The notes under the pieces are model-generated. The model did not search any database. It saw only the letters and a program-made list of their open reading frames with translations, and was not told the DNA's origin. A stretch of DNA of 64,000 bases. Source: Candidatus Latescibacterota bacterium (GTDB lineage Bacteria > Latescibacterota > UBA2968 > UBA8231). Location: positions 4,480,001 through 4,544,000 of the forward strand of contig OZ242318.1 in NCBI GenBank assembly GCA_965208105.1, given 5' to 3'. The stretch's first letter is position 1, and each line of letters opens with the position of its first letter. The translations under genes were made by a program, and so were the position numbers. Positions 425 to 15,683 of this stretch are shown in pieces.

Positions 425-436
425 TCAGTTACCTCG

Positions 437-868: not shown

Positions 869-914
869 GTCATCTGGGGGACAATTATTTTCAAACTAGA
901 GATAAAGTTCCATT

Positions 915-1256: not shown

Positions 1257-1294
1257 GGTCGCCTCCGTCATGAAGTCAAAAAATTTCGCGGTTG

Positions 1295-1383
1295 AATTAA
1301 CTGTCGCCGGTTTGCGAACACTCGAAGCAGGTCGGCGAAGGTCTAGAGGAGGAATGTGGCGCTGGGCAAAATGGCTTATAGAC
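1295..1383 (-). repeat. attC-like site with degenerate R'' box
   Basis: Plus strand aattaactgtcgccggtttgcgaac...gcaaaatggc; shares cgccRgtttgcgaac with the spacers at 331 and 12981. Confidence 0.55.
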
Positions 1384-1435
1384 GACGCAAAATTATCGAG
1401 AACCCAAATGCAAAGGATCAACCTTCTGACCCTTC

Positions 1436-2416
1436 TCAATCGAGAATCAGTGACTTGATTTCTGCCCAGCCTGTAATGTACCTGGTTTCACCTGGTGGCG
1501 TTCCTTGGAGAGCGGGTGACCACATTGGTCGCCGTCCAGGGGTAAGGACCCTACTACTGGTTCCGTCTGAGCTGATGACATGTAACATCGACTTTTCACT
1601 TCCAGCCTCAGGCTGTATGGCAACCGCGATCCACTGACCGTCGGGGGACCATGAGAGTTCCTGTGGCTTCGATCGTACGTTCCCCTCTAGCAACTGGATT
1701 TCCACATTGGTTGAAAGATCAATAACGAACAAGCCCGGCTGTTGGTATGATGCATCTGTAAAGCCACGCGTGTAAGCTAATCGATTACCCTCAGGCGACC
1801 ACGCTCCATAGGTTGCCCATGTACGAATGAATCTGGTCTGTCCTGTGGAAACATCCAGTGCGTGCAGATCGTGCCAACCGTCGTCTCCTGTCCGGACCAG
1901 TACCTCGGTTTGGTTCGGAGCGAAAGGAGACCCAGACGAGTCCTCGACCCACCCATGTTTAAAAATCCATCTGTCCTCACTCCCTTCGATCGACCGCACA
2001 TACAGGTTTGTTGAAAAAGGTCCGGCACTGAGGTGATACAATAGCCTGTCACTGTTTGGAATCCACACCGGTTTATAGCCGCGACCCAACTCTCTCTCCT
2101 TCCCAGTTGCAACATCAATTAAGGACAGCGTGCTCCAACTTTCAGTTATTTGCTCAATAGCCAGTAGTTTGCCGTCACTCGAAAGTGATGCATGCCAGCC
2201 CCCACGGAAAGTTTTGGTAGCACCAAATCTTCCCAGGAGGATCGAAGTTCCGGCATCTCGAGCAAGTAAAATTCGAATTCCATCCGGAAGCCAGTGATAG
2301 AATCGGCCCTCACCGATTTTGGCCTGGCCGGTACCGTCCGGATTGATGATGTTCAGTCCATCTCTTTCGTACAGAATCTGGCTACCTGCGGGGTTGCAGA
2401 TCCCCAAGGAGGACAT
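1436..2416 (-). CDS. TolB/PD40-like beta-propeller protein (start uncertain)
   Basis: Repeated WSPDG/WSPEG/WLPDG/LSSDG blade motifs. Confidence 0.7.
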   Translation of the reverse strand: MSSLGICNPAGSQILYERDGLNIINPDGTGQAKIGEGRFYHWLPDGIRILLARDAGTSILLGRFGATKTFRGGWHASLSSDGKLLAIEQITESWSTLSLIDVATGKERELGRGYKPVWIPNSDRLLYHLSAGPFSTNLYVRSIEGSEDRWIFKHGWVEDSSGSPFAPNQTEVLVRTGDDGWHDLHALDVSTGQTRFIRTWATYGAWSPEGNRLAYTRGFTDASYQQPGLFVIDLSTNVEIQLLEGNVRSKPQELSWSPDGQWIAVAIQPEAGSEKSMLHVISSDGTSSRVLTPGRRPMWSPALQGTPPGETRYITGWAEIKSLILD

Positions 2417-2677
2417 GGTGCCGAAAATAATCGCAAATCGTCTAATTAATCTGATTTGTGAATTACCTGGGCTGCGTGCCAAACCCCTAAGGAATCTCCG
2501 TGACAGAATAGGGATGGATGTCGAATGACGATCCCGGTAGGTAGACCAGGCAAGGGGATTCCGAAGCTCCCGGTGGCGAGTGTCCCCCTGCGGAAACCTG
2601 CTTTCAACTGACCTGGCCATCTTGCCCCTTTCATGAGAACCTCCAATCAATTCTTGTACGAGGGCCAGGTTTGCAAA

Positions 2678-2750
2678 GCCGAATCAATTTCGCACCGCAG
2701 CAAGCCGAGCTGGTCCAGGCTGGCTTGTGCAAGAAGCGAGAAAATACGGT
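2678..2750 (-). repeat. Degenerate attC-like hairpin
   Basis: gca-G-caagcc-G-agc-loop-gct-ggcttg-tgc stem with unpaired Gs, flanked by gccgaat and atacggt. Confidence 0.4.
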
Positions 2751-2804
2751 CCCTTCCACATCTGTCGGCCCATTGAAATCACGAGGCTCCCGTGTGGCCA
2801 TCCT

Positions 2805-4412
2805 TCATCGCGAGTGAGCGTAATCGCATTGTCCCGACACCAGGTCATAGGGAATATGGAGCAGCATTCCCGGGCCGTACTTTTCGCCTTCCGGGTATCC
2901 CCGGGCACCCGTCACCAGATGGTGTGAGCCAATGGCATAATAGATTCCATCGTAGGGCCCCTCCTCCTTTACGATGGTAAGCTGGCCCGACCCTGGGCCG
3001 GGAACGAGCCTTTCTTCGAATAGAACATCGAAGAGACCGGCCCCATCGCGTCCGAGAGCGGAGAAATAGGCGCCGCGGTCGTTGCCTGTAGTGGCGAAGA
3101 ACACGGCGCGGCCGCTTGGGTCTGGCTCAATCTGCAGATTGACACCTCCCGATGCCGGCAAGCCCGTGTCCGCAGCCTCCTCCATCGAAAGGTGGTCTCC
3201 GAACCGGTCACCCAAGCGGTTGATCCACTTGACGTCACCCGCGTGATCCGAGAAAACGATAGGGGTGCCGCCACTCCAACTGGTCATCCAGATGCCATGG
3301 CTGTTGACTCCAAGTTGCATCGGACCTGAAGGAATGCCGCCAGTCGGTTCGCCGTTTTGCACCTTGATCAGGGTAAAATATTCAGTGACGTCGATCTCGC
3401 GAACAATCTCTCCCGTTTCCTTGCTCCTGGCCTCCACCGTACACACAGGATCGCCGATCACCTTACCTTGGTGTGCGGCGTAAACCACGTCGCCCCAGGG
3501 TTTGATGTCCATGATCCGGTTTTCCTTGTTGCGGGCGAATCCGTTATCGGCAAAAGTAGGGTCCCGGATCCAACGCCTGGCGGCGCGATAGATGCGCATC
3601 TTGTAGAGCCCACCTCGTTCGGCATCCAGTCGGGCGAGGTGCGGCTGGCCATGGTGCCCCCTGTGGGTCGTCCAGTACACCTCGGTATCCAGGTCGTCGA
3701 GCTGCATGCTCATGGTGCGGGCGCCGTCGAAGTCCAGGACCTCGTTGTAGGACCAACGCTCCCAGGCCGTCGGATCGGCAATGTAGTCCGTTCCCAGGGT
3801 GCCGCGAATCATATCGCCGGCTCGGTGACCGCGCTCGTCCAGCTGCCGTTCACATTCCTGAATCCAGATTTCCGGCGGATCGTGCCGCGTATCGATCAGA
3901 GTGCGGCCAAATCCCGTGCGGGCAGCCGGGCCCGCGAGGGCCGGCTTGTCGAGATTGTTGACGGCGATGAGGTCGAACTCGTATATCCCGTAGGCCAGGT
4001 CGCGGCCGAGCCAATCCTTTCCATTCCATTGCAGCGAATGCGAGCCTGCTTCGAATGCCAGGCCTGGAGATACGAACACGAGAAGATCCTGCGGTCCCGT
4101 GCTCACCCACGCACCCCACGGTCCCCTCGGCCCCGTTCTCGAAGAAAATTGATACACCGCAAGCCACACGGTTGCGCGTTGATTCAGGGTAAAAGGAAAC
4201 TCTGGGGAATGGTGGTCATGCCAGGTGACATCGCTTGTGGTCAAGCGCAGCGGCTGAAACTCGCCCGACACATCGGGTTGCTGAAACTCACCCTTCGGGG
4301 CCGGAGGTTGCGGATACTGGACGGTCTGGTATTCGGGAATCACCACCACCTGTGCCGAAAGATTTCGAGCAGTGAGCGGCAGGCAGAGGGCCAGAAGCAA
4401 CAACCACTGCAT
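2805..4412 (-). CDS. Secreted hypothetical protein with a FlgD Ig-like segment and a probable propeller region
   Basis: GGAGG then MQWLLLLALCLPLTARNLSAQ signal peptide; FTLNQRATVWLAVY...LQWNGKD...GIYEFDL FlgD-like pattern. Confidence 0.6.
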   Translation of the reverse strand: MQWLLLLALCLPLTARNLSAQVVVIPEYQTVQYPQPPAPKGEFQQPDVSGEFQPLRLTTSDVTWHDHHSPEFPFTLNQRATVWLAVYQFSSRTGPRGPWGAWVSTGPQDLLVFVSPGLAFEAGSHSLQWNGKDWLGRDLAYGIYEFDLIAVNNLDKPALAGPAARTGFGRTLIDTRHDPPEIWIQECERQLDERGHRAGDMIRGTLGTDYIADPTAWERWSYNEVLDFDGARTMSMQLDDLDTEVYWTTHRGHHGQPHLARLDAERGGLYKMRIYRAARRWIRDPTFADNGFARNKENRIMDIKPWGDVVYAAHQGKVIGDPVCTVEARSKETGEIVREIDVTEYFTLIKVQNGEPTGGIPSGPMQLGVNSHGIWMTSWSGGTPIVFSDHAGDVKWINRLGDRFGDHLSMEEAADTGLPASGGVNLQIEPDPSGRAVFFATTGNDRGAYFSALGRDGAGLFDVLFEERLVPGPGSGQLTIVKEEGPYDGIYYAIGSHHLVTGARGYPEGEKYGPGMLLHIPYDLVSGQCDYAHSR

Positions 4413-4492
4413 ACAAACATTCCTCCGGGACAGCGAATACCAGGGAGTCCGCTGAAGATAGGATTTATGTTCTGCCAAATGTCGCCGATAGT

Positions 4493-5242
4493 TCATGACA
4501 CCTCCTTGTGCGCGAGAGCAATCAGCAGCTTTGAGCCAGTCCCATACGCACTCCCATCCAAGTCCCCATACAGTTGCGTATTGGCAAACCCGGCTTGCGA
4601 GAGTCGGTCCTTCAACTCCTGGCCTGAGTACAAGGTGTGGTGAAACTTGAAAGACCTTACCTGCTGGTCCCGGACCAGGAGCCACTCGACTCGAATCCTT
4701 GTCCAATCATCGAAGATCTCCCGGCGTTGAACGATCAACGTCCCGTCGGGATACACTTCCGAGTTGGCCGCGGAGAATTCTCTGGCCAACACCTCTTTCC
4801 CTTTCATCTCCATGACGAGGACTCCGCCGGGTCTGAGACTCTCGTAAATATTGCTGAGCACTCGCAGGTCCTCGTCCTTGTCATCGAAATAGCCGAAGGA
4901 CGTAAACATGTTGAGCACGAGGTCGTAGGATGAGGGCCGCACGAAACGACGCATGTCTTCCTGCACAAACTCGAGGTCCAATTTCCGCTCGCTTGCCCGC
5001 GCCTTTGCTTTTTGCAGTAGGAACGTTGTAGAGTCTACGCCCGTTACGGAGAAACCACGCTCGGCCAGGACCGTGGAGTGTCGGCCGGGGCCGCAGCACA
5101 AATCGAGGATATGAGTCCCGCCGAACGCCACCAGCGAAAGAATCTTGTCGACTTGACCATCCGCAGATTGAAATCGATCTTCCGGGAACATATAGGGATA
5201 CATTTCCCTCCAGAAGTCTTCGTTTTCAAACCATTCGGACAT
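4493..5242 (-). CDS. Class I SAM-dependent methyltransferase
   Basis: ILDLCCGPGRHS, MFTSFGYF, LRPGG motifs. Confidence 0.9.
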   Translation of the reverse strand: MSEWFENEDFWREMYPYMFPEDRFQSADGQVDKILSLVAFGGTHILDLCCGPGRHSTVLAERGFSVTGVDSTTFLLQKAKARASERKLDLEFVQEDMRRFVRPSSYDLVLNMFTSFGYFDDKDEDLRVLSNIYESLRPGGVLVMEMKGKEVLAREFSAANSEVYPDGTLIVQRREIFDDWTRIRVEWLLVRDQQVRSFKFHHTLYSGQELKDRLSQAGFANTQLYGDLDGSAYGTGSKLLIALAHKEVS

Positions 5243-5271
5243 GGACCCTCCAGCGTCAGTCTAAGGACGAA

Positions 5272-5574
5272 CTAGTCGTCTTCGTATTTTGGATCGGGAT
5301 CCGCACCGGCGTTCAGGAGTGCTTCTACCATGTCGGCATTTCCCGCCTCCAGAGCGATGATCAATGCGGGCTCCCCGTCTTCGTTTACCGCATCGGGATC
5401 CGCACCCGACTTAAGGATCGTTTCTACCATATCGGTTTGTCCCGCCTCCACTGACTGTAGCATGGTACGGTTGTCGTCTGCACGCGTAACTTTCGTCTTC
5501 TCCTGCATGGTAGCGCAGGACGAGATCAGAGCAGAGGAACAGATCATCAATGTGAGACCACTTACCTTAGACAT
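5272..5574 (-). CDS. Short ankyrin-repeat lipoprotein
   Basis: Lipobox-like ISSC; two ankyrin-like repeats (GQTDMVETILKSGADPD, GNADMVEALLNAGADPD). Confidence 0.7.
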   Translation of the reverse strand: MSKVSGLTLMICSSALISSCATMQEKTKVTRADDNRTMLQSVEAGQTDMVETILKSGADPDAVNEDGEPALIIALEAGNADMVEALLNAGADPDPKYEDD

Positions 5575-5612
5575 TATTTACCTCCTAATTGGATGTCGAA
5601 ATCGGGCATTGC

Positions 5613-5699
5613 GCATAAGGTTTTCGCGGTGCCCGAACCACGAAGCGGTCAAGCGAAGGCGCGCCAGCGCCCAGGCCGCGGGCATGGGGAAATATAGGC
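5613..5699 (-). repeat. Degenerate attC-like site
   Basis: TGCCCG...CGGGCA stem with internal GGCGCTGGCGCGCC and ACCGCTTCGTGGT hairpins; close paralog of 10176-10258. Confidence 0.55.
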
Positions 5700-5706
5700 C
5701 GTGTGG

Positions 5707-6522
5707 TTACTCGTGCGGAGCAACCAGTTTCTCCCTAAGTTTGATCGCCGTTTCGTACGCATCAGCGAGAAACTCAGTGGGCGGTTGAGCGGGATCCTGG
5801 GGCACTGCCTCAATCATGACTGGCCCCTGGTGCAATGTGGGGAATGCTGCCGAAACTGCATCCCAATCTACAATTCCTTCCGTCGGCAACCAGTGAACGT
5901 CGCTCTGTCCGTCGGTGTCTGAAAAGTGCGTCGTGATGAGACGATGGGCCCACTTGGCAAGCACTGCACTAGGGGTGCTGGAATACAAGTAGTCGTGTGA
6001 GCTGTCGTAGCACAAGCCCAGACTCTCCAGGGGAACTTCCTTTAGAATCAAGTCCAAGTGATCGGTTCCCCTTGTATTCTCAAGAGCCAACGCGATCCCG
6101 GCGTTTGCTGTCTCCTCGCCCAAGCGGCGAAAAATATCCAAGCCTTCCGCGTGCGGTGGAGGCGGTTCCGGTCCCCTGGTTACGTGAAGAACAATGCAGG
6201 AAATGGAATGCCGGCTGCAGTACTCTATTAACTCGAGGTTTTCATTAACTAACGCGTCGCGCTCGCTGGGTTTATCAGACCAGAAAGCATTTGCGTTTTC
6301 GTATGTTGCGTGGGCGTGATCGATGGTTAGCCCGGCATCTGCGGTCATCCCCGGCATCTCGTGAGCACGGCCAGATTCCACCAAGGGTTCCAAACTTCCC
6401 ATCCAGAGGAAGGTGTGACTGAAACCACTCTGCTTGATCAGCTTCAAGCGTTTGGCAAGAGGAAGTTGGTAGCCGAACCAGGAAAATGTTCCGAGAGATG
6501 TTGTGGCTTCACCTGAAGTCAT
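5707..6522 (-). CDS. Sugar-phosphate isomerase/epimerase (xylose isomerase-like TIM barrel)
   Basis: LALEN, CYDSSH, HFSD, DVHWLP-G-VDW, MIE metal-site motifs. Confidence 0.85.
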   Translation of the reverse strand: MTSGEATTSLGTFSWFGYQLPLAKRLKLIKQSGFSHTFLWMGSLEPLVESGRAHEMPGMTADAGLTIDHAHATYENANAFWSDKPSERDALVNENLELIEYCSRHSISCIVLHVTRGPEPPPPHAEGLDIFRRLGEETANAGIALALENTRGTDHLDLILKEVPLESLGLCYDSSHDYLYSSTPSAVLAKWAHRLITTHFSDTDGQSDVHWLPTEGIVDWDAVSAAFPTLHQGPVMIEAVPQDPAQPPTEFLADAYETAIKLREKLVAPHE

Positions 6523-6535
6523 GAGTCGATACGGC

Positions 6536-6600
6536 GCCTAACTGTTCCGCCGCACGAACCCGAAGGTTCTGCGGCAACAGGATTGCACGGAAAGTAGATC
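6536..6600 (-). repeat. attC-like site with a perfect R' box GTTAGGC 13 nt before the next ATG
   Basis: Plus strand gcctaac at 6536-6542; GCCGCA-GAACC-TTCG-GGTTC-G-TGCGGC hairpin. Confidence 0.65.
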
Positions 6601-6615
6601 GCCCATGGGCTGGAT

Positions 6616-7155
6616 TTAGTCACTCTTGGTCTGTCCATCCAACAGGGCGACCCCGAATTTCTGGTTCAGAGCCTCCATGTCCGCGAAATCACAGGGATGC
6701 AGTTCGTACCCGGAATGCGAACGCACCTGGTATTCAGGCGAGAGGCATCGTACCCTTCTTCCGCCGATCCATCCCGTGGAGTTCAATTCCGCTTTCGAGA
6801 TCACTTCATCGACCTCTCCTGGACCGTAGATGGCTCCTCCATTTCCAGAGAAAGAGATCACATGAAAGTCGATCGAGCCATGCGATCGGTGACTCATCAC
6901 GTAATTCCGGTCCTTGCGATCATCATCGTAGACATGGGAGAACCCCTTCTCCAGAAGCGCGTCAGTCAGCCGTTCGGAGTCTTCCCACCCAATAATGATG
7001 TCCAAATCTTCGTGGTCCCTGGTTTGCTCGCCCATCAATGCGTCGACGCCCCAACCGCCATCGATCCAAACCGTTATCCCAAGTTCATCAAATAGGTCCA
7101 AAAACCAATGGACATTGTGAATTGGCATTTGCATGGATTGGGGGGTATCCTTCAA
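6616..7155 (-). CDS. Nucleotidyltransferase of the lincosamide (Lnu)/aminoglycoside-2''-adenylyltransferase family
   Basis: VWIDGGWGVDALMGEQTRDHEDLDI and CLSPEYQVRSHSGYEL signatures. Confidence 0.85.
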   Translation of the reverse strand: MKDTPQSMQMPIHNVHWFLDLFDELGITVWIDGGWGVDALMGEQTRDHEDLDIIIGWEDSERLTDALLEKGFSHVYDDDRKDRNYVMSHRSHGSIDFHVISFSGNGGAIYGPGEVDEVISKAELNSTGWIGGRRVRCLSPEYQVRSHSGYELHPCDFADMEALNQKFGVALLDGQTKSD

Positions 7156-7236
7156 GGTTCTATAGTGTAATCAGGTAGCCTGGTCTGAAACAGCGTAAAC
7201 GGTTGCGCGCAGGTCTCCAAGCTGGATACCGTCGTG

Positions 7237-8286
7237 TCATGTGGGGTAGGGCCTTGACCCTTTTACAGAAACAGATTCCGCCCATTCCAACAACTGATCC
7301 ACAATTTTGCGGGTCAGGCCGACGGATGGTTCCACGTCAATGGTCAGAGTCGGAGCAGATCTTCTGGCTGCCCAGTCCAACGCTTCCGGCGTCATGTTGT
7401 CCTCAATCCAGGCGCAGGGTCTGTCTCCCACGAAAAGATCGATTGCCGGCACTTTTTCAGCGGGGTCGAAGGGTATTGGCGGAAACGGAATCGTCGGCCA
7501 CGCCGGTAGAGCAAAAAATGGTGCGAGCAGTCGGTTCGCGTCCTCACACCAGCCAGTCGCCCATACCATTTCGAAATGATCGTTCAACTCGGCCAACCAC
7601 CTTCCGTGCATCTCAGACAGGTAGACAGGATAGTCGTCCTCCGGAAAGAAGTGATGAGCATTGAATCCTTTGGGCGTGTCATCAAACCCGAAGGGATTGA
7701 GCACCCCGTCGACGTCGACTAGAAGCACAGGCCGGGTGGATGCGACTGAAAGCGGCAAACCAAAGATAGACAATGGGCGACGGAGCCGAACCTGACGGCC
7801 GTTGTCTCGAATACCGCCATCGCGTTTCCACCCCATCGCTTCGTAGAAGGCGATTCCCTGTTCGTAACCTTCGACTGTCCAGACTATTGCATCGTCATAG
7901 CCGTTCGCGACGAGATGACGAAAGGCGATCGAGGCCAACGCCTTGCCAATGCCGCGGCGCCAATAGGAGGGGTCGATGGCGATGGTATCGAGCTCCCCTA
8001 ATGTGGCGCCAACGGGGTCCCGGCTGGGACCGATGCCGACAAAACCGACAATCTTGCCCGCATGCTCCGCGACCCACCATCGGTGCGGGGCAGACTTCGC
8101 CAGATCTCCGCGCCAACACTCAATATGCTCTGGCGTGACGATGCGATCCGGCTGCTCGATGAGTTCGCCGAATCCTGCATTCCACGAATCGATGTATATG
8201 CGCGCGACGGCTTCGGCGTCAGTAGTGGAGGCCGATCGGATGATTGGAGAAGGTTTTGGTGGAAGTGCGTGTTTCAATTTTCTCAA
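7237..8286 (-). CDS. GNAT acetyltransferase fused to a HAD domain (Swiss-army-knife RNA-repair type)
   Basis: N-terminal WRRGIGKAL and FYEAMGW; C-terminal LLVDVDGVLN, VWATGW, WIED. Confidence 0.75.
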   Translation of the reverse strand: MRKLKHALPPKPSPIIRSASTTDAEAVARIYIDSWNAGFGELIEQPDRIVTPEHIECWRGDLAKSAPHRWWVAEHAGKIVGFVGIGPSRDPVGATLGELDTIAIDPSYWRRGIGKALASIAFRHLVANGYDDAIVWTVEGYEQGIAFYEAMGWKRDGGIRDNGRQVRLRRPLSIFGLPLSVASTRPVLLVDVDGVLNPFGFDDTPKGFNAHHFFPEDDYPVYLSEMHGRWLAELNDHFEMVWATGWCEDANRLLAPFFALPAWPTIPFPPIPFDPAEKVPAIDLFVGDRPCAWIEDNMTPEALDWAARRSAPTLTIDVEPSVGLTRKIVDQLLEWAESVSVKGSRPYPT

Positions 8287-8398
8287 TCCTGTGTCACATG
8301 ACTTCTAGCCGAATTGCGGAACCAAGGAGGAGGTTGCCGCGGGTCAGGGTGTCGGAGGGGCGGCGCAGCGATTAACAGTCTGTGGCGGGATCGGAGCT

Positions 8399-8848
8399 TT
8401 ACTTCCGAGCGTCCATTGACTCTACCAACAGATCAATCTTGTCGTCGTAGTTGGCAACAAGCTCAGGAAGCGCTCTAATTTCGGCCCAGAAGAAATCGAA
8501 TGGATGGATTACGGATCCGTCCTCGGCAAATTCTCCATGGCGCCAGGTTTCTTCCGTCGGCCCTTCTACAGACAGATGAAAGAACCATCGGTGCTGTAGC
8601 TCATTGCGCCCGCAATCCCGCATGTCTCTGCTATCCCGGGCAAGGAACTGCTCACATCTGAGCCCGGTTAAACCCGTCTCCTCTTTCGCTTCCCGCATCG
8701 CGGCATCCTGAGGATTCTCCCCTGGCTCAATCGTTCCCGCTGGAACCTGAATGCCAGCTTCCGGAGCCCCTGGTTGAGTAAAAAGGAGCAGGAGGCTCCC
8801 GTTGGTTATGTAGGCGTAAGCTCTGTGACGAATATTCATCGTTTTCAT
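8399..8848 (-). CDS. NUDIX hydrolase
   Basis: Nudix box GTIEPGENPQDAAMREAKEETGL. Confidence 0.9.
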   Translation of the reverse strand: MKTMNIRHRAYAYITNGSLLLLFTQPGAPEAGIQVPAGTIEPGENPQDAAMREAKEETGLTGLRCEQFLARDSRDMRDCGRNELQHRWFFHLSVEGPTEETWRHGEFAEDGSVIHPFDFFWAEIRALPELVANYDDKIDLLVESMDARK

Positions 8849-8930
8849 CGCGAAATGAGGATGATCTGATCGCCGTGTTCGTTCCCCATATTTTAGCCTC
8901 CATGTGGATGGTGGACCTTCGCATCGGACT

Positions 8931-8981
8931 GCCGAATGCCAAGGCGCGTCAGCGCCGGAGCGCAACACCACGCTGTTATCG
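8931..8981 (-). repeat. attC-like half site
   Basis: ccaaggcgcgtcagcgcc...gctgttat, similar to 12131-12172; minus strand CGATAAC just after the stop codon. Confidence 0.5.
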
Positions 8982-8992
8982 GTAGTGGAACC

Positions 8993-9550
8993 TCACATAC
9001 TCTCATCTCGCAGCATACCGAAAACCAGAAAATCATGCCACTCATTGTCAAACCTCAGACTGCCTCGCGTCGTCCCTTCATGCCGCATGCCAGCCTTGGC
9101 CAGAACGCGAGCTGATGCTGCGTTCTCCGCTGCGCAGCCGGAGTGAATGCGATGCAAACCCAACGATGTGAAGCCCCATTGGAGTACAGCGCGGAGCGCC
9201 TCAGTGGCGTAACCTTTGTTCCAGCGGTCGGGGAAATACCGATAGGCAACAAAACCGATGTCCATGCTATTCGGCGTTTCAACGCCAAATCCGCGTTCCA
9301 GCCCACAAATCCCAATGAATGCGTGATTCTCTCTCAACTCTACTGCCAAAGAATAATTCCGGCGTGGTGCTTCAGATTGTTGCCTGATCCAGGTGTCCAC
9401 GATCTCTCGAGCTTTGTCTACCTTCTTCAGCGGTTCCCACCGTTCATAGCGGCTCGTTTCGGGCAGACGGTAGAGCCGGAACAGGCTTTCCGAATCGTCC
9501 TGCCGAAATTCTCGAAGGAGCAGCCTTTCTGTGACAAGAGAAAAACACAT
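8993..9550 (-). CDS. RimJ/RimL-type GNAT acetyltransferase
   Basis: TERLLLREF, WNKGYATEAL, NAASARVLAKAGMRHEG. Confidence 0.9.
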   Translation of the reverse strand: MCFSLVTERLLLREFRQDDSESLFRLYRLPETSRYERWEPLKKVDKAREIVDTWIRQQSEAPRRNYSLAVELRENHAFIGICGLERGFGVETPNSMDIGFVAYRYFPDRWNKGYATEALRAVLQWGFTSLGLHRIHSGCAAENAASARVLAKAGMRHEGTTRGSLRFDNEWHDFLVFGMLRDESM

Positions 9551-9604
9551 GGAAACCGGATCAATTTGCTTTGAGTAAATAACCCATTACCAATACCATT
9601 TTCA

Positions 9605-9675
9605 GGTTGCCGTATCCGCGAGGCGGGTCGCCGAATGCCAGAGGGCGAATGCGCGGGGCGGCAACCGTGTTGTAG
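9605..9675 (-). repeat. Degenerate attC-like site
   Basis: ggttgccg...cggcaacc stem; R''-like CTACAAC; gcgaatgcgc...ggcaaccgtgt shared with about 11118-11146. Confidence 0.45.
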
Positions 9676-9716
9676 TGCGAGGTGTGCATCGGATAATCCG
9701 AAGCTTGACCATGGGT

Positions 9717-10121
9717 TCAGGGTGAAAAGGTCACCTCGAGCTTTATCCCGTCAGGATCAAAGAAGAAGGTAGCGTAGTAGCCTGGTCTGTACTCGGGACA
9801 CTCTATAGGCGGATTCTCGATTATGACATCTTGTAGATTGAGAAGGACTTCTTTGTAGAAAGCGTCTACATGGGCGCGGCTGGGGACCGCGAATGCCAAG
9901 TGGTGCAGCCCCACTGAATTTCGGTCGTACTCCAACGTAGAAGCCGACTTACTCAGTAAGAAAATAAAGCCCTCTTTCGTAAATCTATAGCGCTCGGTAC
10001 GTCCATCCAGGGCCAAGTGGGGCTCGAGTTCGTGAAATCCAAGCCACAGCAATATATGCTCATAGAAGGTTTTTGAGCGATGGAGGTCTGTAACATTGAT
10101 TCTCAAGTGATGCAGCGGCAT
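9717..10121 (-). CDS. VOC/glyoxalase family protein
   Basis: LHHLRINVTDL, GLHHLAF, YYATFFFDPDGIKLE. Confidence 0.9.
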   Translation of the reverse strand: MPLHHLRINVTDLHRSKTFYEHILLWLGFHELEPHLALDGRTERYRFTKEGFIFLLSKSASTLEYDRNSVGLHHLAFAVPSRAHVDAFYKEVLLNLQDVIIENPPIECPEYRPGYYATFFFDPDGIKLEVTFSP

Positions 10122-10175
10122 GATTGAAGCCCTGTTCCATTCAACACCTGGATTTCGCGTTTCACCAAGGCTTTC

Positions 10176-10258
10176 GGCAAATGTTCCGCCGTGCCCGAAC
10201 CGCGAAGCGGTTGAGTGAAGGAGCGACAGCTCTGAAGCCGGGCACGGGAGTGTCAGCA
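10176..10258 (-). repeat. Degenerate attC-like site
   Basis: CCGTGCCCG...CGGGCACGG stem and AACCGC-TTC-GCGGTT hairpin; eroded cores TGCTGAC/ATTTGCC. Confidence 0.55.
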
Positions 10259-10271
10259 GAAGTCAAGTCCA

Positions 10272-11015
10272 TCAGGCCGCAGTCAGCAAAATGGGCCGAC
10301 CATCAGTAATAACGACGGTATGCTCAAAATGAGCCGAAAGGGATCCGTCCGAGGTTTTCATGGTCCAACCGTCGAGACCTTCAACGGCCCGGGCTGGATG
10401 CTCGGCAATCAAAGGCTCGATGGTGATCACAAGACCATTCCAAAGAGGCTTCGAATCGAGCGGATTGTAGGTGTTCGCAACGATGGGGTCTTCATGGATA
10501 ACCCGACCTATCCCGTGCCCCGTAAGCTCACTGACGACCCAGAATCCTTGTCGCTTCACCTCGTGCTCTACGGCATGGCCGATGCAATTGATCGGTTTGT
10601 TCGCACGAGCTACGCCCACTGCCTTTTCGAATGCCGCACGGGCACACTGGCAAAGTCTAGCGGCTTTCGCAGAGCACGGAGGAATCGGGATGGTGATTGC
10701 CGCATCTGCAATATAGCCGTTCAATTCAGCGGTGACATCCAGGCTTACAAGGTCACCTTGTTCCAGCACTCGATTACCCGGAATACCGTGAACAATCTCG
10801 TCGTTGACGCTGATAAGGTTGACACCAGGAAAACCATAGGTCTCCCGAGGTGCGGATGTTGCCCCGTACCGGGTGAGCGCCAACTCGCCAACACGGTCGA
10901 CTTCCGCTGTGGTTACTCCGGCGCGAACGGTACGCTCCATTGCCTTTAATGTGGCGGCAACCACCTGCCCTGCCTGCGCAAGGCCTTCGAAATCCTCAGG
11001 ACATTCTATCGACAA
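10272..11015 (-). CDS. map: Type I methionine aminopeptidase (cassette-borne copy)
   Basis: ISVNDEIVHGIP, SLDV, IADAA, GHGIG-IHEDP, TIEP, SAHFEHT; probable TTG start after AAGGAG. Confidence 0.9.
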   Translation of the reverse strand: MSIECPEDFEGLAQAGQVVAATLKAMERTVRAGVTTAEVDRVGELALTRYGATSAPRETYGFPGVNLISVNDEIVHGIPGNRVLEQGDLVSLDVTAELNGYIADAAITIPIPPCSAKAARLCQCARAAFEKAVGVARANKPINCIGHAVEHEVKRQGFWVVSELTGHGIGRVIHEDPIVANTYNPLDSKPLWNGLVITIEPLIAEHPARAVEGLDGWTMKTSDGSLSAHFEHTVVITDGRPILLTAA

Positions 11016-11226
11016 CGAACTACTCCTTTCGAGGGTGATCACTCTCAATTTTGATTTCTGCCAGGCTATTACCGAATGTCGAACCTGGTGCCGGCCAGGT
11101 TGACGACAGGTCATGGCGCGAATGCGCCTGAGGGGCAACCGTGTCGTCAGGCCGATGGTAATCGAATTCATTGGCCTTCCCCTGTACATTTCGGCAAGTC
11201 CCCCTTGGCCGTGACCGAATTGACAG

Positions 11227-11970
11227 TTACTTTACCCCTCCGTATATGGCGTCGCCACCGAGTCGATAGAAGCAATCGACGATAGCGAAGCCTGCCTTCT
11301 TGAGGTGGCGGAAGTGCCAGTCCAGCGGTAACCCGGCCTCCTCTCCCTTCCAGGGACCTTGAATCTGAGATCTCCTGTCCCGTACCTCTTGACTCCGGTT
11401 CTCCAGAAACTCCTCCCAAAATGACTGCCAAGGAGTCATTCCCTGCCTGGACGGATCCCCGACTGATCGAGAACGGATCCAAACCGACTGAATCTGCGGG
11501 TCCTCACAGCCCGCGTGGTCTGCGTTGAGAAAGATTCCCCCTTTCTTCAGGAGTTGATAAAACTGCCTGTACAACCTATCCAGCTGAGAGCTGGTGAACC
11601 AATGCAATGCCGTCGCAGATAGTATGGCGTCTACCTTGGCAGGACAATGCGAGGTCCAATCGTCATTACGGAGGTCTGTCTCTATCAGCTCGACGCGATT
11701 CCTGAATCGTTGCAGGCGGGTACGCGCTATATCAAGCAAGGTAAAGTCGAAGTCCAAGCCGAAAGTGTGGACTGATGGGAAGGCGGCAAGAACCTCCGCC
11801 ATGACGCTGCCGGTTCCGCAGCCAACATCGAGTATCAGTTCCGGTACCTCGTGCTTGGCTCGAATGAGCGCCACCAGAGTACGTAACCGCTCCGGCCGGT
11901 CAGGGTTATAGATCTCCTGCATGGAGTCCCATCGAGAGACCCAGTAGTCGGTATCAGTATTGCTCGCCAT
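11227..11970 (-). CDS. Class I SAM-dependent methyltransferase
   Basis: ILDVGCGTGS, SATALHW, LKKGGIFLNAD. Confidence 0.85.
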   Translation of the reverse strand: MASNTDTDYWVSRWDSMQEIYNPDRPERLRTLVALIRAKHEVPELILDVGCGTGSVMAEVLAAFPSVHTFGLDFDFTLLDIARTRLQRFRNRVELIETDLRNDDWTSHCPAKVDAILSATALHWFTSSQLDRLYRQFYQLLKKGGIFLNADHAGCEDPQIQSVWIRSRSVGDPSRQGMTPWQSFWEEFLENRSQEVRDRRSQIQGPWKGEEAGLPLDWHFRHLKKAGFAIVDCFYRLGGDAIYGGVK

Positions 11971-12015
11971 TGTTGCCTGAAGCTGGTGGCTAACAGTGAA
12001 GCCGGCTGACAATTC

Positions 12016-12124
12016 GTCTAACTGTCTTTAAACGAACACCAGATTTTTACAAATACCGCAAAACTTTAATTATCTGACGCGAAAGTAGGTAGTTGGGCAA
12101 ACAGTCGCAATTAATACCTGAAAC
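12016..12124 (-). promoter_or_regulatory. Internal Pc-like promoter plus attI-like core
   Basis: TTGCGA(12110-12105)-N17-TACTTT(12087-12082), then TTTAAAGACA-GTTAGAC; colinear with 14102-14210. Confidence 0.6.
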
Positions 12125-12194
12125 CATAGGCCAAGACGCGTCAGCGTCGCAGCGGCGAGCTTGCTGTTACAATAAGTGAAACAGGAAACAGCGG

Positions 12195-12926
12195 CTAATT
12201 CGGCTTGCGGGCGAGTACTCCCAGGTGGCCCGTGGAGAAGCGCTGCTTCCCGTATCCAGCCAAGTACCTGACGCGAAAACCTAACTCCCGCAACATGCAA
12301 CACAGCTCTGAACTTCGGTGCAGGATCAGCTCATGTCTCTCGTGCGATCGTCGATACGACTCACCGATCTTGCGGAATGAAGTAATCTCACGAGTTATTC
12401 TGCAGCCGTTGCCATGTGGCCGGGTTTCGACGAGAACCGCCCAATCGCTGCCGGCGTACCATGAACGAGTAAGGTCTTGACCGTTGCGGGGGCCCTGCCG
12501 CAGGACATCGAAGATGAAAACACCACCTGGTCTCAACGCATTGTAAACCTGGGAAAATAATGATCCAATGGCACGGTTGGCGTTGCGTTGATCGAGTCGA
12601 TAGCTGAGACATTCGCCGATTGCAGTTACGGCGTTACAGCTTGGCAAATCGACCTCCAACATGGAGGCTTGTCTGAATTGAGCTTCCGGGGCCTTCCGGC
12701 ATGCGATGCGAAGCATTGAAGCGGAGATATCTATGCCAAGTACCTTGTAGCCAGCGCGGGTGAGGGCAGAAGCCCAGATCCCGCTTCCACAGCCGAGATC
12801 AACAACCATTCCGTTGGGGATCCCGCAATTACCGAGAAGGTCCAGCAATCCCGGCGCAGACCTCTCGGCAAACCGTCCGAATCCTTCGTCGTGTATATAC
12901 GCCAGATCTTCTTCGTACGCTTTCAT
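12195..12926 (-). CDS. Class I SAM-dependent methyltransferase
   Basis: VVDLGCGSG, LGIDIS, LRPGGVFIFD; start MKAYEEDLAY. Confidence 0.85.
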   Translation of the reverse strand: MKAYEEDLAYIHDEGFGRFAERSAPGLLDLLGNCGIPNGMVVDLGCGSGIWASALTRAGYKVLGIDISASMLRIACRKAPEAQFRQASMLEVDLPSCNAVTAIGECLSYRLDQRNANRAIGSLFSQVYNALRPGGVFIFDVLRQGPRNGQDLTRSWYAGSDWAVLVETRPHGNGCRITREITSFRKIGESYRRSHERHELILHRSSELCCMLRELGFRVRYLAGYGKQRFSTGHLGVLARKPN

Positions 12927-12980
12927 GATCGGCTGCCAACCAAATGCCAGGCCTTCCTTCACTCCATTTCTTGTAGTGAT

Positions 12981-13060
12981 TCGCCGGTTTGCGAACCTCC
13001 GAACCGGCTTGCGGCGGGGGAAGGCTCGATCAGCGCCGCAAGGCAATCTGTGCTATTTGT
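12981..13060 (-). repeat. Degenerate attC-like site
   Basis: tcgccggtttgcgaac and aaggctcgatcagcgcc blocks shared with other spacers. Confidence 0.5.
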
Positions 13061-13074
13061 CGAAGTATCGGAAT

Positions 13075-13433
13075 TCATTCGGTAGGGAAGTCCAGCTCGT
13101 CCTCTGGTATGCCCTGCATTTTGCCGTGTTCAATGGCCTCCGACCAGGACAGTCTGTCAGAATGAGACGCCTCGAAAACACGGTCGTTGTACACAATGAT
13201 CAATTTATCCTCGTTCCAAAATGGGCATACCATCCCTCTACGACGTACGGCTGAAATTCCTCTATCGCCTCGCGTCCGCATTTTATCCAATAGATGTGCC
13301 AGCGCCCTTTGTTGCCTTCATAGTCGATCGCCTTGTCGTCGTCAGAAATCGAAGCACCAACGACTCTGTAATTGTTGATTATTGAAGGGTCCGAAAGCCC
13401 CTCTGAAATCACGCATCCTTTCCAACAGCCCAT
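13075..13433 (-). pseudogene. Frameshifted small hypothetical protein
   Basis: ORFs 13200-13433 and 13075-13290 join as WYAHF/WNEDKLIIVY...GIPEDELDF if one T is added to the run at about 13218-13221. Confidence 0.6.
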
Positions 13434-13445
13434 TGCGTATTCCCT

Positions 13446-14069
13446 TTATGAAATTATTTCAAAAACCAGCCGCAGACCGAGGAAGGACAACACTGTGCCC
13501 GTTGCGCGATCCACCCAGCACTTGCAGCGATCATAGAGAGCCTTTACGCGTTGTGTCGAGGCGAAGAGGGCAAGTCCGGAATGGAAAATCAGGGAATTGA
13601 AGAAAACCGAACCAATTGATGCCATCACCGCCCAACTTGGAAGATTTGGCGGAAAGATTGCCGTGAATATACCCCCAAAAAATATTGCTGCTTTCGGGTT
13701 GGTCATATTGGTTGCGATCCCCAGGCGATAGGCTTGCCAGGAGGTGCGAGGTTCCGCTTGTAGGTCGGAGGAAAACGCCTGATCGGCACGGCGCCACATT
13801 GCGATCCCAAGGTAAAGCAAGTAGACTCCCCCAAGCAGTCGAAGCGTCCAATATAGCCAAGCCAATTTGTCAACCAGGAAGTTCAGGCCGCCCATGGCGG
13901 TGCTGGACCATAAAAGAGCTCCTGTCGCGATCCCCAGGGCCGTCATGATGCCCGCCGGACGAGTCCGGCTTACCGCGGTTTGGGTGACGAGCAGCACATT
14001 GGGACCGGGACTGATCAAGGCGAGGAGATGGACCGCCACAAGACTACCATACAGCGCTGCGTAATCCAT
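13446..14069 (-). CDS. LysE/RhtB family translocator
   Basis: SPGPNVLLV, GGVYLLYLG, TNMTNPKAAIFF. Confidence 0.92.
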   Translation of the reverse strand: MDYAALYGSLVAVHLLALISPGPNVLLVTQTAVSRTRPAGIMTALGIATGALLWSSTAMGGLNFLVDKLAWLYWTLRLLGGVYLLYLGIAMWRRADQAFSSDLQAEPRTSWQAYRLGIATNMTNPKAAIFFGGIFTAIFPPNLPSWAVMASIGSVFFNSLIFHSGLALFASTQRVKALYDRCKCWVDRATGTVLSFLGLRLVFEIIS

Positions 14070-14101
14070 GCCCTCTACATTTAGTTTCGGCTGACATCAG
14101 C

Positions 14102-14210
14102 CGGTAACCGCATTTACCCGATAAATTGGTTCCCATTTATCGCGCTGACCGTTGCTTATCTGACACGAAGGTACCTATGAGGGGGAACAGTCGCAACAAA
14201 TATCCGGAAC
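14102..14210 (-). promoter_or_regulatory. Array-head Pc-like promoter plus attI-like core
   Basis: TTGCGA(14196-14191)-N17-TACCTT(14173-14168), then GGTAAATGCG-GTTACCG. Confidence 0.6.
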
Positions 14211-14351
14211 GGTGGGAAATTTGCGTAACCTGTTGCGGCACTTGATATAGAATGACTCTCCAGTTTTCATCCCGGGTGGCGCCATCTTTCCGATTTGGGG
14301 GCATTCCTGGCAGTGCCGACCGGTGTTGTCGGCGAGGGGGTCCGGGTGCGT

Positions 14352-15683
14352 TTAATCTCGTGCCTGCTCCAGGCGTTCCCGCAGTCTCGCGAGCTCCGTT
14401 TTGACCAGGAGGTTTGTTCCCGTGGCGATCCGCTGGGGCCAGAAGTTGGTGCACAGAGGAGCGATATCCACCTCGTAGCCGCCGGCCTTGATCAGCTCAT
14501 CGGTTGGCAGGTAGGTGTGGACGTGCTGGCAGTACCCCCAGCAGGCCATCTCGTACCCTGACAATACCTCTTCCACCTGGGGCCTCCATTCGGCCACTGC
14601 CTCGCTGGCGATGTAGGCGATCAGGTATTCAGGGGCCAGCTGAATCAATCCCACCGGCCAGGGTTGCACCTCGTCGCAGGGCGGGCCGCGGCGCAAGCGT
14701 TGGGTCCAGTAGGCGCCTGCGCCGCCCCAGGTGGGGCCCAACTCCCTGATGGCTTCCGGCGTCAGGCGGGGACCGGGTCTGACGAGCGCGTGAGTCATGA
14801 ACGCCGACAGCTCCGGCTCGATCTCGGCGCCGGGACGACTGAGGATTCGGCTCAATTCCCCAGCCAACTGCTCACCGGCCCGGTGGAGAGTTTCCCGAGA
14901 ACCGGTCACAAAGACCTCTTTATCCAGATCGGCGAGGATTCTGGGCCGCACGCTGCCGCCCAGGCCCTGGAAAAACTGGAGATGGGTTTTCTCCCCCAGC
15001 CGTCCTCGCGACGCCGTCCGCGCCGCCCCTGGAAAGTCTGCGGAGATGGACTGCCATTCCGCCCGGTACAATACCACCGGATGGCAGGCGTAGCTGTAGA
15101 GAATGGCCCGGCAAGCGGAGGCCTTCAGCTCCAGCACCCAAAGATTGGGATCGTAGTACCCATCCCGGTTGGGTCGGTGTTCGGTAATTCCCCCTTCGTT
15201 CCCGCGCCGGCGATTGATCGCCAGTTCGCTCCGGCCGTTGCGCCAGTAAACCTGTACCGGAGAAAGGCGCTCCAGCGCACGGCGGGCAAGCGCGCACAGG
15301 GTGTTCCCTAGCATAGCCTCGTAGTGCAGGAGCTGCGCGGGTTTTTCGCCCTCGTACGGATATATGTCAAGCAGACACATGCCGCTGCTGTGGGTATGGG
15401 AGAAATTCAGCACCACCGCCTCCGGCAGGGTTCCGGCGATGGCGGCCAGCCGGTGCCGGAGGGGATCGGCGACGGAGGGGGTGCTGCCGACGACATCGAG
15501 GGAAACGAGTACCAGCCGGCGCCTGCGGTGGTCCTGCAGGACGACAATCTGCGCCATGAGTGGATCGGCCACCTGTTGCGCCGGATCGAAGACCGGACCC
15601 CGTCCACCCATGGGAAAGCCCAGGGGTGGAGTGATGTCCGTCTCAGCCCAGCCAGCCAGTGCCTGTGCTCGAGATGCCTTCAT
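14352..15683 (-). CDS. Neutral/alkaline ceramidase-like hydrolase
   Basis: DITPPLG, DPLMAQIVVL, SHTHS, INRR, YACHP, SADFPG; ATGA overlap with the upstream stop. Confidence 0.8.
   Translation of the reverse strand: MKASRAQALAGWAETDITPPLGFPMGGRGPVFDPAQQVADPLMAQIVVLQDHRRRRLVLVSLDVVGSTPSVADPLRHRLAAIAGTLPEAVVLNFSHTHSSGMCLLDIYPYEGEKPAQLLHYEAMLGNTLCALARRALERLSPVQVYWRNGRSELAINRRRGNEGGITEHRPNRDGYYDPNLWVLELKASACRAILYSYACHPVVLYRAEWQSISADFPGAARTASRGRLGEKTHLQFFQGLGGSVRPRILADLDKEVFVTGSRETLHRAGEQLAGELSRILSRPGAEIEPELSAFMTHALVRPGPRLTPEAIRELGPTWGGAGAYWTQRLRRGPPCDEVQPWPVGLIQLAPEYLIAYIASEAVAEWRPQVEEVLSGYEMACWGYCQHVHTYLPTDELIKAGGYEVDIAPLCTNFWPQRIATGTNLLVKTELARLRERLEQARD

Follow-up and report, generated by a model that had tools for sequence, protein, structure and literature searches.

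The two homologous modules at 12016–12124 (module A) and 14102–14210 (module B) of the window, the 64,000-nucleotide stretch of a Candidatus Latescibacterota genome analyzed here, most likely belong to two cassette arrays in series and are very unlikely to be copies of a portable module. Taking the data as a whole, we consider it probable that both are integron-type platforms served by a recombinase in trans, that B heads one array and A a second array joined to it through an illegitimate junction, and that the locus is now fossilized. In the model we propose, a platform would be a unit of roughly 97 nt with a promoter-like 5′ half and an insertion-site 3′ half. The 5′ half would consist of TTGCGACTGTT, a 17-nt spacing, TACCTT, and then TCAGATAAG, oriented into the cassettes, and the 3′ half of a 20- to 23-nt palindrome (..CGAACC..GGTTCG..) followed about 8 nt on by the crossover site G/TTA (slash, point of exchange). 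Within this bacterial family, one platform would adjoin, in divergent orientation, the gene of a short IntI-like tyrosine recombinase, and many further platforms that lack such a gene would head other attC arrays, presumably served in trans.

The original prediction had described A and B as a gapless pair at an offset of 2086, with 41 matches between the 55-nt blocks starting at 12070 and 14156, and had read on the minus strand of each TTGCGA-N17-TAC(T/C)TT-CG(C/T)GTCAGATAA, followed after exactly 47 nt by GTTAGAC (A) or GTTACCG (B); our recount reproduced each of these statements. Over the full alignment 67 of 109 positions are identical, and since 41 of these 67 fall in the 55-nt blocks, identity outside them is low (26/54). 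The 109-nt block compared with all other same-strand positions of window 1–14300 gave a mean of 26.6 matches (standard deviation, 4.4) and a best value of 43, and in a repeat search the two modules form family D3 (68 nt at 71% identity, with a spacing of 2086). Across the 4.85-Mb genome there are two occurrences of the exact pattern TTGCGACTGTT-N18-26-GTCAGATAA and none of its reversed control. That the arrangement is no assembly artifact is shown by contigs of two separate studies that run across it: a single 4371-nt contig (X6) spans window 10743–15116 with 169 differences, and contigs from X8 cover 10994–13257 and 13805–15463. Reads aligned to the locus from four DNA runs give the same arrangement, and no clean alternative cassette at the GTT of A or B was seen among them. 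Reads from X11 contain two low-depth joints (13450>13628 and 13723>14182) that are not interpretable.

Table 1. Features of the locus in window coordinates, listed from the core gene into the array
Feature	Position	Strand	Basis and remarks
Core gene abutting the array head (earlier called a hydrolase)	14352–15680	−	Weak ceramidase-like match, PF04734, E 4e-4, below cut-off; start provisional
Region upstream of module B	14211–14351	−	Counterpart of the intI-attI intergenic region in intI-linked copies (alignments)
Module B, array head	14102–14210	−	nhmmer E 5.7e-30; R1 85.8 bits
Module B parts	TTGCGA 14196–14191; TACCTT 14173–14168; crossover-type GTTACCG 14108–14102	−	Palindrome decayed
LysE-type translocator, first cassette gene behind B	13446–14069	−	PF01810 E 1.1e-33
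Frameshifted ORF pair, same cassette as LysE	13075–13433	−	No attC between pair and LysE; no Pfam match
attC of first cassette	12961–13069	−	R2 51 bits, E 8.7e-15, model 8–116
SAM-dependent methyltransferase, second cassette gene	12195–12926	−	PF13649 E 8e-15
Truncated attC, 5′ half only	12126–12180	−	R2 model 8–63 of 120; nhmmer 6–61 of about 114
Module A, internal copy	12016–12124	−	nhmmer E 1.5e-28
Module A parts	TTGCGA 12110–12105; TACTTT 12087–12082; GTTAGAC 12022–12016	−	Palindrome lost
SAM-dependent methyltransferase, first cassette gene behind A	11227–11970	−	PF13649 E 2e-17
attC of A's first cassette	11069–11144	−	Weak: R2 16.4 bits, E 5e-4
M24 peptidase cassette	10167–11061	−	PF00557 E 5e-40; attC 10167–10269, R2 47.2 bits
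Rest of array in window	332–9687	−	R2 matches, GC profile
Further attC matches (R2)	9581–9687; 8915–8991; 8287–8372; 5605–5678; 1298–1388; 332–434	−	

The two modules sit in different surroundings (Table 1). Module B lies at a GC step from 61–69% to 53–56% and is orthologous to a copy in the sister species G001 that adjoins the same core gene, which is syntenic there and 88% identical. The region upstream of B carries GTTACGC and an incomplete inverted copy of the TTGCG box; beyond it, tblastn found no integrase coding sequence or remnant. B would be the true head of an array of roughly 28 kb that abuts core DNA. Module A has low GC on both flanks and would head a second array, attached after the two cassettes of B. 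In the first of these, the open reading frames 13200–13433 and 13075–13290 overlap in different frames, and an additional A follows position 13217 in all four DNA runs; in the attC that closes this cassette, TAAC has become AAAT and GTTA has become ACTA, so that neither core motif is intact. The second ends in a truncated attC that keeps its R″ TTGTAAC and first inner stem and meets module A with a gap of 0, at the junction ...CTTGGCCT/ATGGTTTCAGG with the microhomology TTG(G/C)CC. The joint would be illegitimate, with half an attC fused through 6 to 7 nt of microhomology to a point 26 nt upstream from the −35-like box in A. From the R2 matches (10 in window 332–13069 and 5 more to the left) and the GC profile, the array extends at least 14 kb to the left of the window. 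When 41 genomes were searched, the M24 cassette was found 88% identical over about 880 nt in two of them (G049 and G051), and the LysE and both methyltransferase cassettes matched nothing beyond generic attC ends.

The module belongs to a family, with 8 copies in the studied genome by nhmmer and 10 in G001; of 61 related genomes, 12 contain the module, with 47 copies in total. The original prediction had proposed searching relatives for copies beside intI or ahead of cassettes, and both kinds were found. A matching recombinase gene is present in nine genomes, and in 9/9 one module lies 86–359 nt from it in divergent orientation; the orphan copies mostly mark the border between core DNA and a low-GC attC array. 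The reported lack of an integrase is true of the window; the one intI-like gene in the genome is 2.43 Mb distant and 90 nt from copy C, the third copy considered here. Copy C and the nine-genome association support the proposal that the modules are the platform that sits next to the integrase gene in an integron-type system. Copies B, C, D, E, F, and H lie exactly where GC drops from ∼0.61–0.70 to ∼0.51–0.55, and the attC of the cassette behind copy C starts with the inverse of the junction motif. Copy E has two attC sites 7–9 kb upstream, and copy G has low GC on both sides. Similarity ends at GTTA for all 26 aligned copies, and orphan and intI-linked copies (25 versus 7) retain the module consensus to about the same degree, as would be expected under selection. 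The upstream inverted TTGCG box, a candidate Pint, is absent from D, E, F, and G.

Downstream of module copies we found 112 attC-like sites, grouped into 14 strand-uniform clusters, of which 5 consist of one site. The sites are 95–120 nt long and run from ..TAAC to GTTA.., and both cores are nearly invariant among 43 aligned sites. One single-site fold pairs both ends, and RNAalifold gave no consensus pairs on the alignment, so the attC calls rest on sequence cores and single-sequence folds. Four arrays, at 286, 3335, 4606, and 4640 kb, have no detected head. The cassettes carry small accessory genes, among them LysE, methyltransferases, GNAT, glyoxalase, and M24 peptidase.

That the module end is a real attI is indicated by a cassette of ∼514 nt, 95.9% identical between the two species, which in G001 follows a module directly and in the studied genome has an attC site on either side; the shared homology begins exactly at GTTA and ends exactly at the GTTA of the cassette's own attC. 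Judged from this alignment, the GTT at the module end is the cassette crossover point in the family; at the GTT of A or B themselves, no recombination event is documented. Cassettes of G001 arrays match cassettes in other arrays of the studied genome at 79–96% identity, and nothing is shared between the two arrays that follow the orthologous B platforms. Such cassettes, common to different arrays of two sister species, fit the suggestion that an integrase acts in trans. The palindrome arms covary between genomes (GCGAACC/GGTTCGC, CCGAACC/GTTCGGG, and TCCGAAC/GTTCGGA). We compared the palindrome with LexA-type box motifs and dropped that identification, given the misfit in spacing and the distance of ∼200 nt from the integrase start. 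In most of the 34 copies the palindrome folds at −7 to −15 kcal/mol, in A at −0.6 and in B at −3.8, and B's GTTACCG deviates from GTTRRRY. With this crossover-proximal palindrome decayed and the integrase gene broken, the role of A and B as working insertion points is in doubt.

The 5′ half has fared differently. TTGCGA-N17-TAC(C/T)TT is conserved in most of the 34 copies; its hexamers match just 7 of 12 σ70 consensus positions, which weakens the predicted promoter reading, and a simple σ70 promoter scan did not flag the modules. Since conservation extends past the hexamers, the 5′ half could instead be a protein-binding region. The locus now looks fossilized, with a stop codon in the only recombinase gene, the palindromes of A and B lost, and the intervening attC cores mutated. 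As the promoter-like half alone is still kept, its current role would likely be to drive transcription into the cassettes, as a putative promoter with a restart at A.

The genome's single intI-like gene is interrupted by a stop codon and unusually short. Its product contains PF00589 and scores 234.9 bits against TIGR02249 (cut-off, 265), with model positions 180–234 unmatched. It has 18 residues where VchIntIA (2A3V) has 60, and in an alignment with nine canonical IntI proteins of the same bacterial family the IntI-specific insertion (∼40 residues, the I2 region) is missing. Like Xer-type recombinases, it lacks this insertion, and it aligns over its full length with XerA (PDB 4A8E); unlike them, it stays below all Xer cut-offs (XerA, 211.9 bits versus 220; XerD, 181.9 versus 329.6; XerC, 180 versus 335), has integron integrases as its best PDB and NCBIfam matches, and adjoins cassette arrays. 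Three other Xer-like genes are present in the genome. In the tree the recombinase groups with short homologues of many phyla outside the canonical IntI clade, with an unresolved backbone, and a related-locus search of genome contigs returned only homologues 43–59% identical, again from many phyla, and no close relatives. Membership in an IS91-linked family was considered and dropped, as seven distant homologues with 10 neighboring proteins showed neither an IS91-type transposase nor a common partner.

How the array came to have two heads can be approached from G001, where the orthologous site has one platform, 86/117 identical both to A and to B (A versus B, 68/117), and the orthologous array has an integrase fragment at its far end. 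This fragment and the microhomology junction between A and the attC 5′ half fit the suggestion that two platforms were fused. The most likely history would be two platform-headed arrays in series with the intervening DNA deleted; going by the sister species, that DNA probably included an integrase gene. A single tandem duplication, in which unequal exchange with the sister chromosome joined an attC from within the array to a site of microhomology upstream of the same platform, so doubling platform and cassettes, and the cassettes later turned over, would produce exactly the observed joint in one event and accords with a G001 platform equally similar to A and B. The platform distances do not date the split, however, because all three fit any rooting; A and B are today followed by unrelated cassettes, so that turnover would have to be complete, and the distal integrase fragment is what one expects if a second integron once followed. 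We regard this duplication as somewhat unlikely. Far less credible is the other origin first suggested, a portable Pc-attI unit inserted by a recombinase into arrays and elsewhere. The copy numbers of 8 and 10 per genome, the internal copies in both species (A here and a G001 copy at 258 kb), and a 3′ end of the module whose final ∼24 nt are similar to local attC 3′ ends would suit such a module. Its borders do not: A's left junction lies in mid-attC and not at G/TT, and no common left end was found among the aligned copies. The orphans differ in what they carry upstream, namely, 50–150 nt of intI-proximal spacer, in one G001 copy the first ∼180 nt of intI, and in another 340 nt of another locus's flank. 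Without site-specific borders, a mobile module is highly improbable, and the two arrays in series remain our reading.

Two further alternatives concern what the platforms are. The arrays could be fossils of a lost canonical, I2-bearing integron integrase, with the short recombinase moving no cassettes. The same attC family does occur in relatives with canonical IntI (58 matches in G021 and 27 in G008), the I2 helix is said in the abstract of PMC7790495 to underlie single-strand attC recombination, and the arrays of the studied genome show decay. Against this, no TIGR02249 match exceeds the cut-off in any of the 12 module-bearing genomes, and none of the 11 genomes with such a match has a module; the short recombinase adjoins a platform in 9/9 genomes; two other short-recombinase subclades (G008 and G052) lie within 0.9–1.5 kb of attC sites; and cassettes switched arrays after the two species split. 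We consider this loss unlikely. It is highly improbable that the conserved block is instead a regulatory leader RNA or a shared repressor operator and neither promoter nor insertion site. Conservation past the promoter hexamers and palindrome arms that change together, as in a dimer-binding site or a hairpin, would agree with it, but a cassette junction invariably follows the block, which also pairs with the recombinase gene, and an operator role is compatible with the attI or promoter roles. Rfam covariance models gave no match at gathering score in the window and nothing relevant at E up to 10, the one match in 11900–14400 being an irrelevant long noncoding RNA (E 4.9).

Understood as trans-served platforms, the modules resemble sedentary chromosomal integrons in the recombinase gene divergent from the platform, in cassettes that enter at G/TT, and in long attC arrays (here reaching at least 47 sites) of small accessory genes; they differ in a recombinase that is without the ∼40-residue insertion and below the curated cut-off and in having up to 10 platforms per genome versus one or two recombinase genes. 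The attI of mobile-class integrons is a compound site upstream of G/TT with integrase-binding repeats and Pc nearby. Compared by description, copy C and its relatives share with it GTT-type repeats (GTTACGC, GTTGCGA, GTTCGCA, and GTTAGAT) and a putative cassette promoter within or close to the site, whereas the site described here has a strong perfect palindrome adjoining the crossover and an attC-like 3′ end. The array in the window has 10 or more attC matches and is megabases away from any integrase, and so qualifies as a CALIN, a cluster of attC sites without an integron integrase, as worded in Cury et al. 2016 (PMC4889954). Compared with CALINs as described there, the orphan arrays here differ in keeping a recognizable attI/promoter-like head, which argues for integrase loss or for array duplication with the platform kept. 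For IntI itself, an I2-less ancestor has been postulated, according to the abstracts of PMC4792948 and PMC7790495. In the openly readable main texts of the literature we found no description of the present arrangement.

That the whole family runs true cassette capture with a recombinase that never had I2, with up to ten attI/promoter heads per genome served in trans by a single recombinase gene, is a proposal we make tentatively and hold at slightly less than even. If it is true, attC cassette recombination would not require I2, or would proceed differently at these sites, and many CALINs would be complete, expressible, integrase-less integrons and not debris. The requirement for I2 becomes testable here, as the platform's constant partner is a recombinase without it and sister genera that share the attC family have canonical integrases. 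Equally testable are the service of many sites by one integrase, given the same cassettes in different arrays and one of them at an orphan head, and the origin and expression of CALINs, given orphan arrays that retain a head with a conserved promoter-like block. The module also provides a sequence probe for attI sites beyond the clinical integron classes. The locus itself records the death of such a system: a stop codon interrupts the recombinase gene, palindromes have decayed, attC sites are mutated or cut in half, and the promoter-like half survives.

Comparison of the two minus-strand modules, the internal copy A and copy B at the head of the array, bore out the original prediction that they are homologous. 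They align without gaps at an offset of 2086 with 67 of 109 positions identical, against a mean of 26.6, a standard deviation of 4.4 and a best score of 43 for the same 109-nt block at all other same-strand positions of window 1-14300, and a repeat search recovered the pair as a 68-nt repeat with 71% identity. The proposed layout is likewise present in both copies, each reading TTGCGA-N17-TAC(T/C)TT-CG(C/T)GTCAGATAA, then 47 nt, then GTTAGAC or GTTACCG, and A does lie two cassettes (three ORFs) beyond B. A search of the 4.85-Mb genome for the exact two-motif pattern gave two occurrences, against none for the reversed control. The similarity is uneven, with 41/55 matches in the half nearer the core gene, the number predicted for the two 55-nt blocks, versus 26/54 in the half ending in GTT; the promoter-like half is common to A and B, and the recombination half is decayed in both. 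The arrangement recurs in contigs from two further studies, labelled sponge metagenome: at ~95-97% identity they run across module A and its half attC, and across module B and the core gene.

Window 1-14200 has a GC content of 52-61%, mostly 53-56%, compared with 60-70% in the remainder. The minus strand of this low-GC part holds small genes of the kind usual in cassettes (LysE translocator, two SAM methyltransferases, M24 peptidase, glyoxalase, and GNAT), between which lie 95-120-nt repeats that start with ..TAAC and end with GTTA... A model built from 43 attC sites—all attC calls here are based on sequence models—gave 10 matches in the window, none of them on the plus strand, and another 5 in the adjoining 18 kb to the left, so that B is the head of a ~28-kb attC array, 140 nt from the core gene. 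A consensus fold sought for the attC alignment was not obtained. One extra A behind window position 13217 is present in all four other sequencing runs compared, and the frameshift in this region is therefore private to the assembly or strain. Elsewhere in the array, an ORF product contains two similar repeat units, which may be ankyrin-like.

Coordinates of the modules and associated features (G000, genome of the window; G001, sister species; L numbers, extracted loci)
Feature	Location	Strand or orientation	Observation
Module A	window 12016-12124	minus	internal copy
Module B	window 14102-14210	minus	array head
55-nt blocks	window, starting at 12070 and 14156	minus	within A and B
Tandem repeat, 99 nt	window 5277-5450		75 nt, 79% identity; inside ORF 5272-5574
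M24 peptidase cassette with attC	window 10180-11061	minus	
attC site	window 12961-13069	minus	both cores mutated
ORF	window 13075-13433		two overlapping ORFs in different frames; looks like one frameshifted cassette gene
Recombinase gene	G000:C1:2,061,252-2,062,187 (L001 1441-2376)		no other intI-like gene in G000; codon 58 is an in-frame TAA, the single stop
Two attC sites	G000:C1:1046875-1055628		upstream of copy E at a distance of 7-9 kb, with high-GC DNA between; may be a further composite array
Copy G	G000:C1:3577000-3581388		low-GC DNA upstream; may be a further composite array
Site without module	G000:C1:4604830-4606260		orthologous to G001 head at 4035 kb; match stops ~38 nt into module
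Integrase fragment	G001:C1:169930-172100 (L119 7431-9600)	opposite to array	residues 32-220, 80% identical
Second internal module	G001:C1:258484-258581 (L126 4985-5081)		attC sites on both sides
Short recombinase, L150	G008:C1:3262475-3264822	same as array	0.9-1.5 kb from attC of the same family
Short recombinase, L151	G052:C5:2354267-2360760	same as array	0.9-1.5 kb from attC of the same family

A module profile identified eight copies in the genome (A to F with E <=1e-15, G with 4e-7, and H with 0.05), all of which were found again by a covariance model of the module with E <=3e-17. Copies B, C, D, E, F, and H are located exactly where the per-kb GC steps from 0.61-0.70 to 0.51-0.55, and A and G have low GC on either side. 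Two nhmmer rounds gave 112 attC-like sites in strand-uniform arrays, with 47, 14, 13, 13, and 5 sites downstream of C, A/B, F, E, and D, respectively. Copy C lies 90 nt from the recombinase gene, in divergent orientation, and the junction motif is found in inverse complement at the start of the attC that ends the cassette behind it; tblastn with the recombinase revealed no remnant near any other copy. At the site orthologous to the G001 head at 4035 kb no module was detected, though a 6-site attC array follows, and this head may have been lost by deletion. Across relatives, the covariance model found 46 copies in 12 of 61 genomes (10 in G001, 5 in G035, and 4 each in G016 and G026), and a weak 47th appeared with search filters off; 38 of the 47 are orphans, without an adjoining intI-like gene. 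The search for copies beside intI was positive: recombinases at least 72% identical to that of G000 occur in G000, G001, G010, G011, G014, G016, G026, G056, and, as a fragment, G032, and in all nine a module lies 86-359 nt from the 5' side of the gene on the other strand. The unit is therefore an integrase-proximal platform.

The consensus of 34 copies reads TTGCgACTGTTcac..aatAcGTACctTCGt.TCagATAAgtA..Cac...gcGGc..aTTAt.CGAACCAaTtGTTCG..Ta.cA.gcA-GtTA. Its 5' half holds the predicted −35 and −10 candidates, in which T-T-G and T-A...T are kept; these hexamers agree with 7 of 12 σ70 consensus positions, a σ70 scan did not flag them, and conservation runs past them on both sides. Copy C has a perfect inverted copy of TTGCGACTGTT ~36 nt upstream, of which the CGCAA core persists in most copies linked to intI; orphans D, E, F, and G have lost this core, as would be expected of a divergent integrase promoter once the integrase is gone. 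The 5' half itself may act as a promoter. The 3' half is a palindrome whose arms covary between genomes (GCGAACC/GGTTCGC, CCGAACC/GTTCGGG, and TCCGAAC/GTTCGGA). As DNA, most copies fold with −7 to −15 kcal/mol; the palindrome has decayed in A, B, G, and H, with −0.6 for A and −3.8 for B (ranks 33 and 27 of 34). The platform ends in ~24 nt (GGTTCGCATACAGGCA-GTTA) similar to the 3' end of local attC sites (GGTTCGCAAACCGGCG-AAAC-GTTA); this attI looks like an attC arm cut short.

In all 26 aligned copies (12 genomes), similarity stops at GTTA. The cassette behind one G001 module (locus L122) is 95.9% identical over 514 nt to a cassette deep in the copy-C array of G000; left of GTTA the G001 sequence has the module and that of G000 an attC, the two agree from GTTA onward, and they diverge again just past the GTTA that ends the cassette's own attC. 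These borders are the footprint of an attI x attC insertion, with GTT as the real crossover point, in a family member in G001; no such event is documented at A or B.

The G000 recombinase scores 234.9 bits against TIGR02249 (cut-off, 265), in a match split in two that leaves out model positions 180-234, and falls below the Xer-model cut-offs. It has 18 residues where VchIntIA (PDB 2A3V) has 60 and aligns with XerA (4A8E) end to end. In nine canonical integron integrases, drawn from the same bacterial family and class, there is a ~40-residue insertion that is absent in all short forms; according to PMC7790495, the ability of integron integrases to recombine single strands came with the I2 helix. 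A quick maximum-likelihood tree (35 rows, two partial rows left out, rooted on three long-branched Xer genes) places canonical integrases in one clade (SH-aLRT 99) and module-linked recombinases in another (100), the latter grouped with short homologues from many phyla on a backbone without resolution. Two other short subclades (55-56% identical), represented by L150 and L151, also lie near attC sites, and no module of this type was found at either locus. We infer that the short enzyme carries out the recombination. The arrays may instead have been built by canonical integrases, as the same attC family is also abundant in two genomes that have one (58 matches in G021 and 27 in G008, with at most 59 scored per genome); integrases over the cut-off occur in 11 of the 61 genomes, none of which has the module, and in none of the 12 module genomes.

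How did copy A arise? The attC directly upstream ends at the module border and matches just positions 8-63 of the 120 in the model; the joint reads ...GCGTCTTGGCCT|ATGGTTTCAGG.... Past the joint the attC consensus is CTTGGCCTTCGG, the G001 platform has ATTGCCCATGGTTTCAG, and the partners have TTG(G/C)CC in common. Because a recombinase-made joint would fall at the terminal G|TT of attC, this joint is illegitimate. G001, of the same genus and with flanking core genes 85-88% identical, has a single platform at the orthologous site, adjoining the same core gene and matching A and B equally (86/117 each; A versus B, 68/117). After five attC-like matches (one partial), its array ends in an integrase fragment that immediately follows an attC and is truncated 5' by DNA that we call IS-like because it matches at least five places in G000. 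The simplest history would be two platform-headed arrays in series, with an integrase gene presumably between them; G000 would then have lost the DNA between the middle of the attC and a point 26 nt upstream of A's −35-like box. Alternatively, A may go back to one tandem duplication at this microhomology, which would yield the same joint. Other orphans, too, look like products of duplication and deletion: one in G001 retains ~180 nt from the start of the integrase gene (93% to locus C), and the second internal module comes with 340 nt of flank from upstream of another head (orthologous to G000 4604497-4604833). With A joined in mid-attC and orphans carrying integrase-gene or foreign-flank remnants, nothing suggests the portable site-specific unit that had been proposed.

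CALINs were defined by Cury et al. 2016 (PMC4889954), who report intI pseudogenes near 15 of 279 CALINs, name integrase loss, rearrangement, and secondary-site insertion as origins, and describe attI for most integrons, as well as CALIN expression, as unknown. A literature search limited to open-access main articles found no publication that describes attI heads as orphans or in several copies, or that pairs attC arrays with a recombinase lacking the insertion.

The G001 orthologue of the recombinase (91% identical) is intact, with a sense codon at the position of the G000 stop. Stops are also present in the orthologues of G014, G016, and G032, and G010, G011, and G026 have only partial matches; inactivation of the module-linked recombinase is thus common in the clade. 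In G000 the system now looks dead, given the recombinase stop, the mutated attC cores, the halved attC, and the four decayed palindromes. G049 and G051, from another family of the class, contain the M24 peptidase cassette and its attC at 88% identity over ~880 nt. This is far above expectation from kinship and suggests that one cassette has recently moved horizontally. Between G000 and G001, the arrays that follow the orthologous B platforms have nothing in common, and cassettes of G001 arrays match cassettes in different G000 arrays at 79-96% identity, which fits an integrase acting in trans; cassettes have therefore moved between arrays, including orphan-headed ones, since the two species separated.
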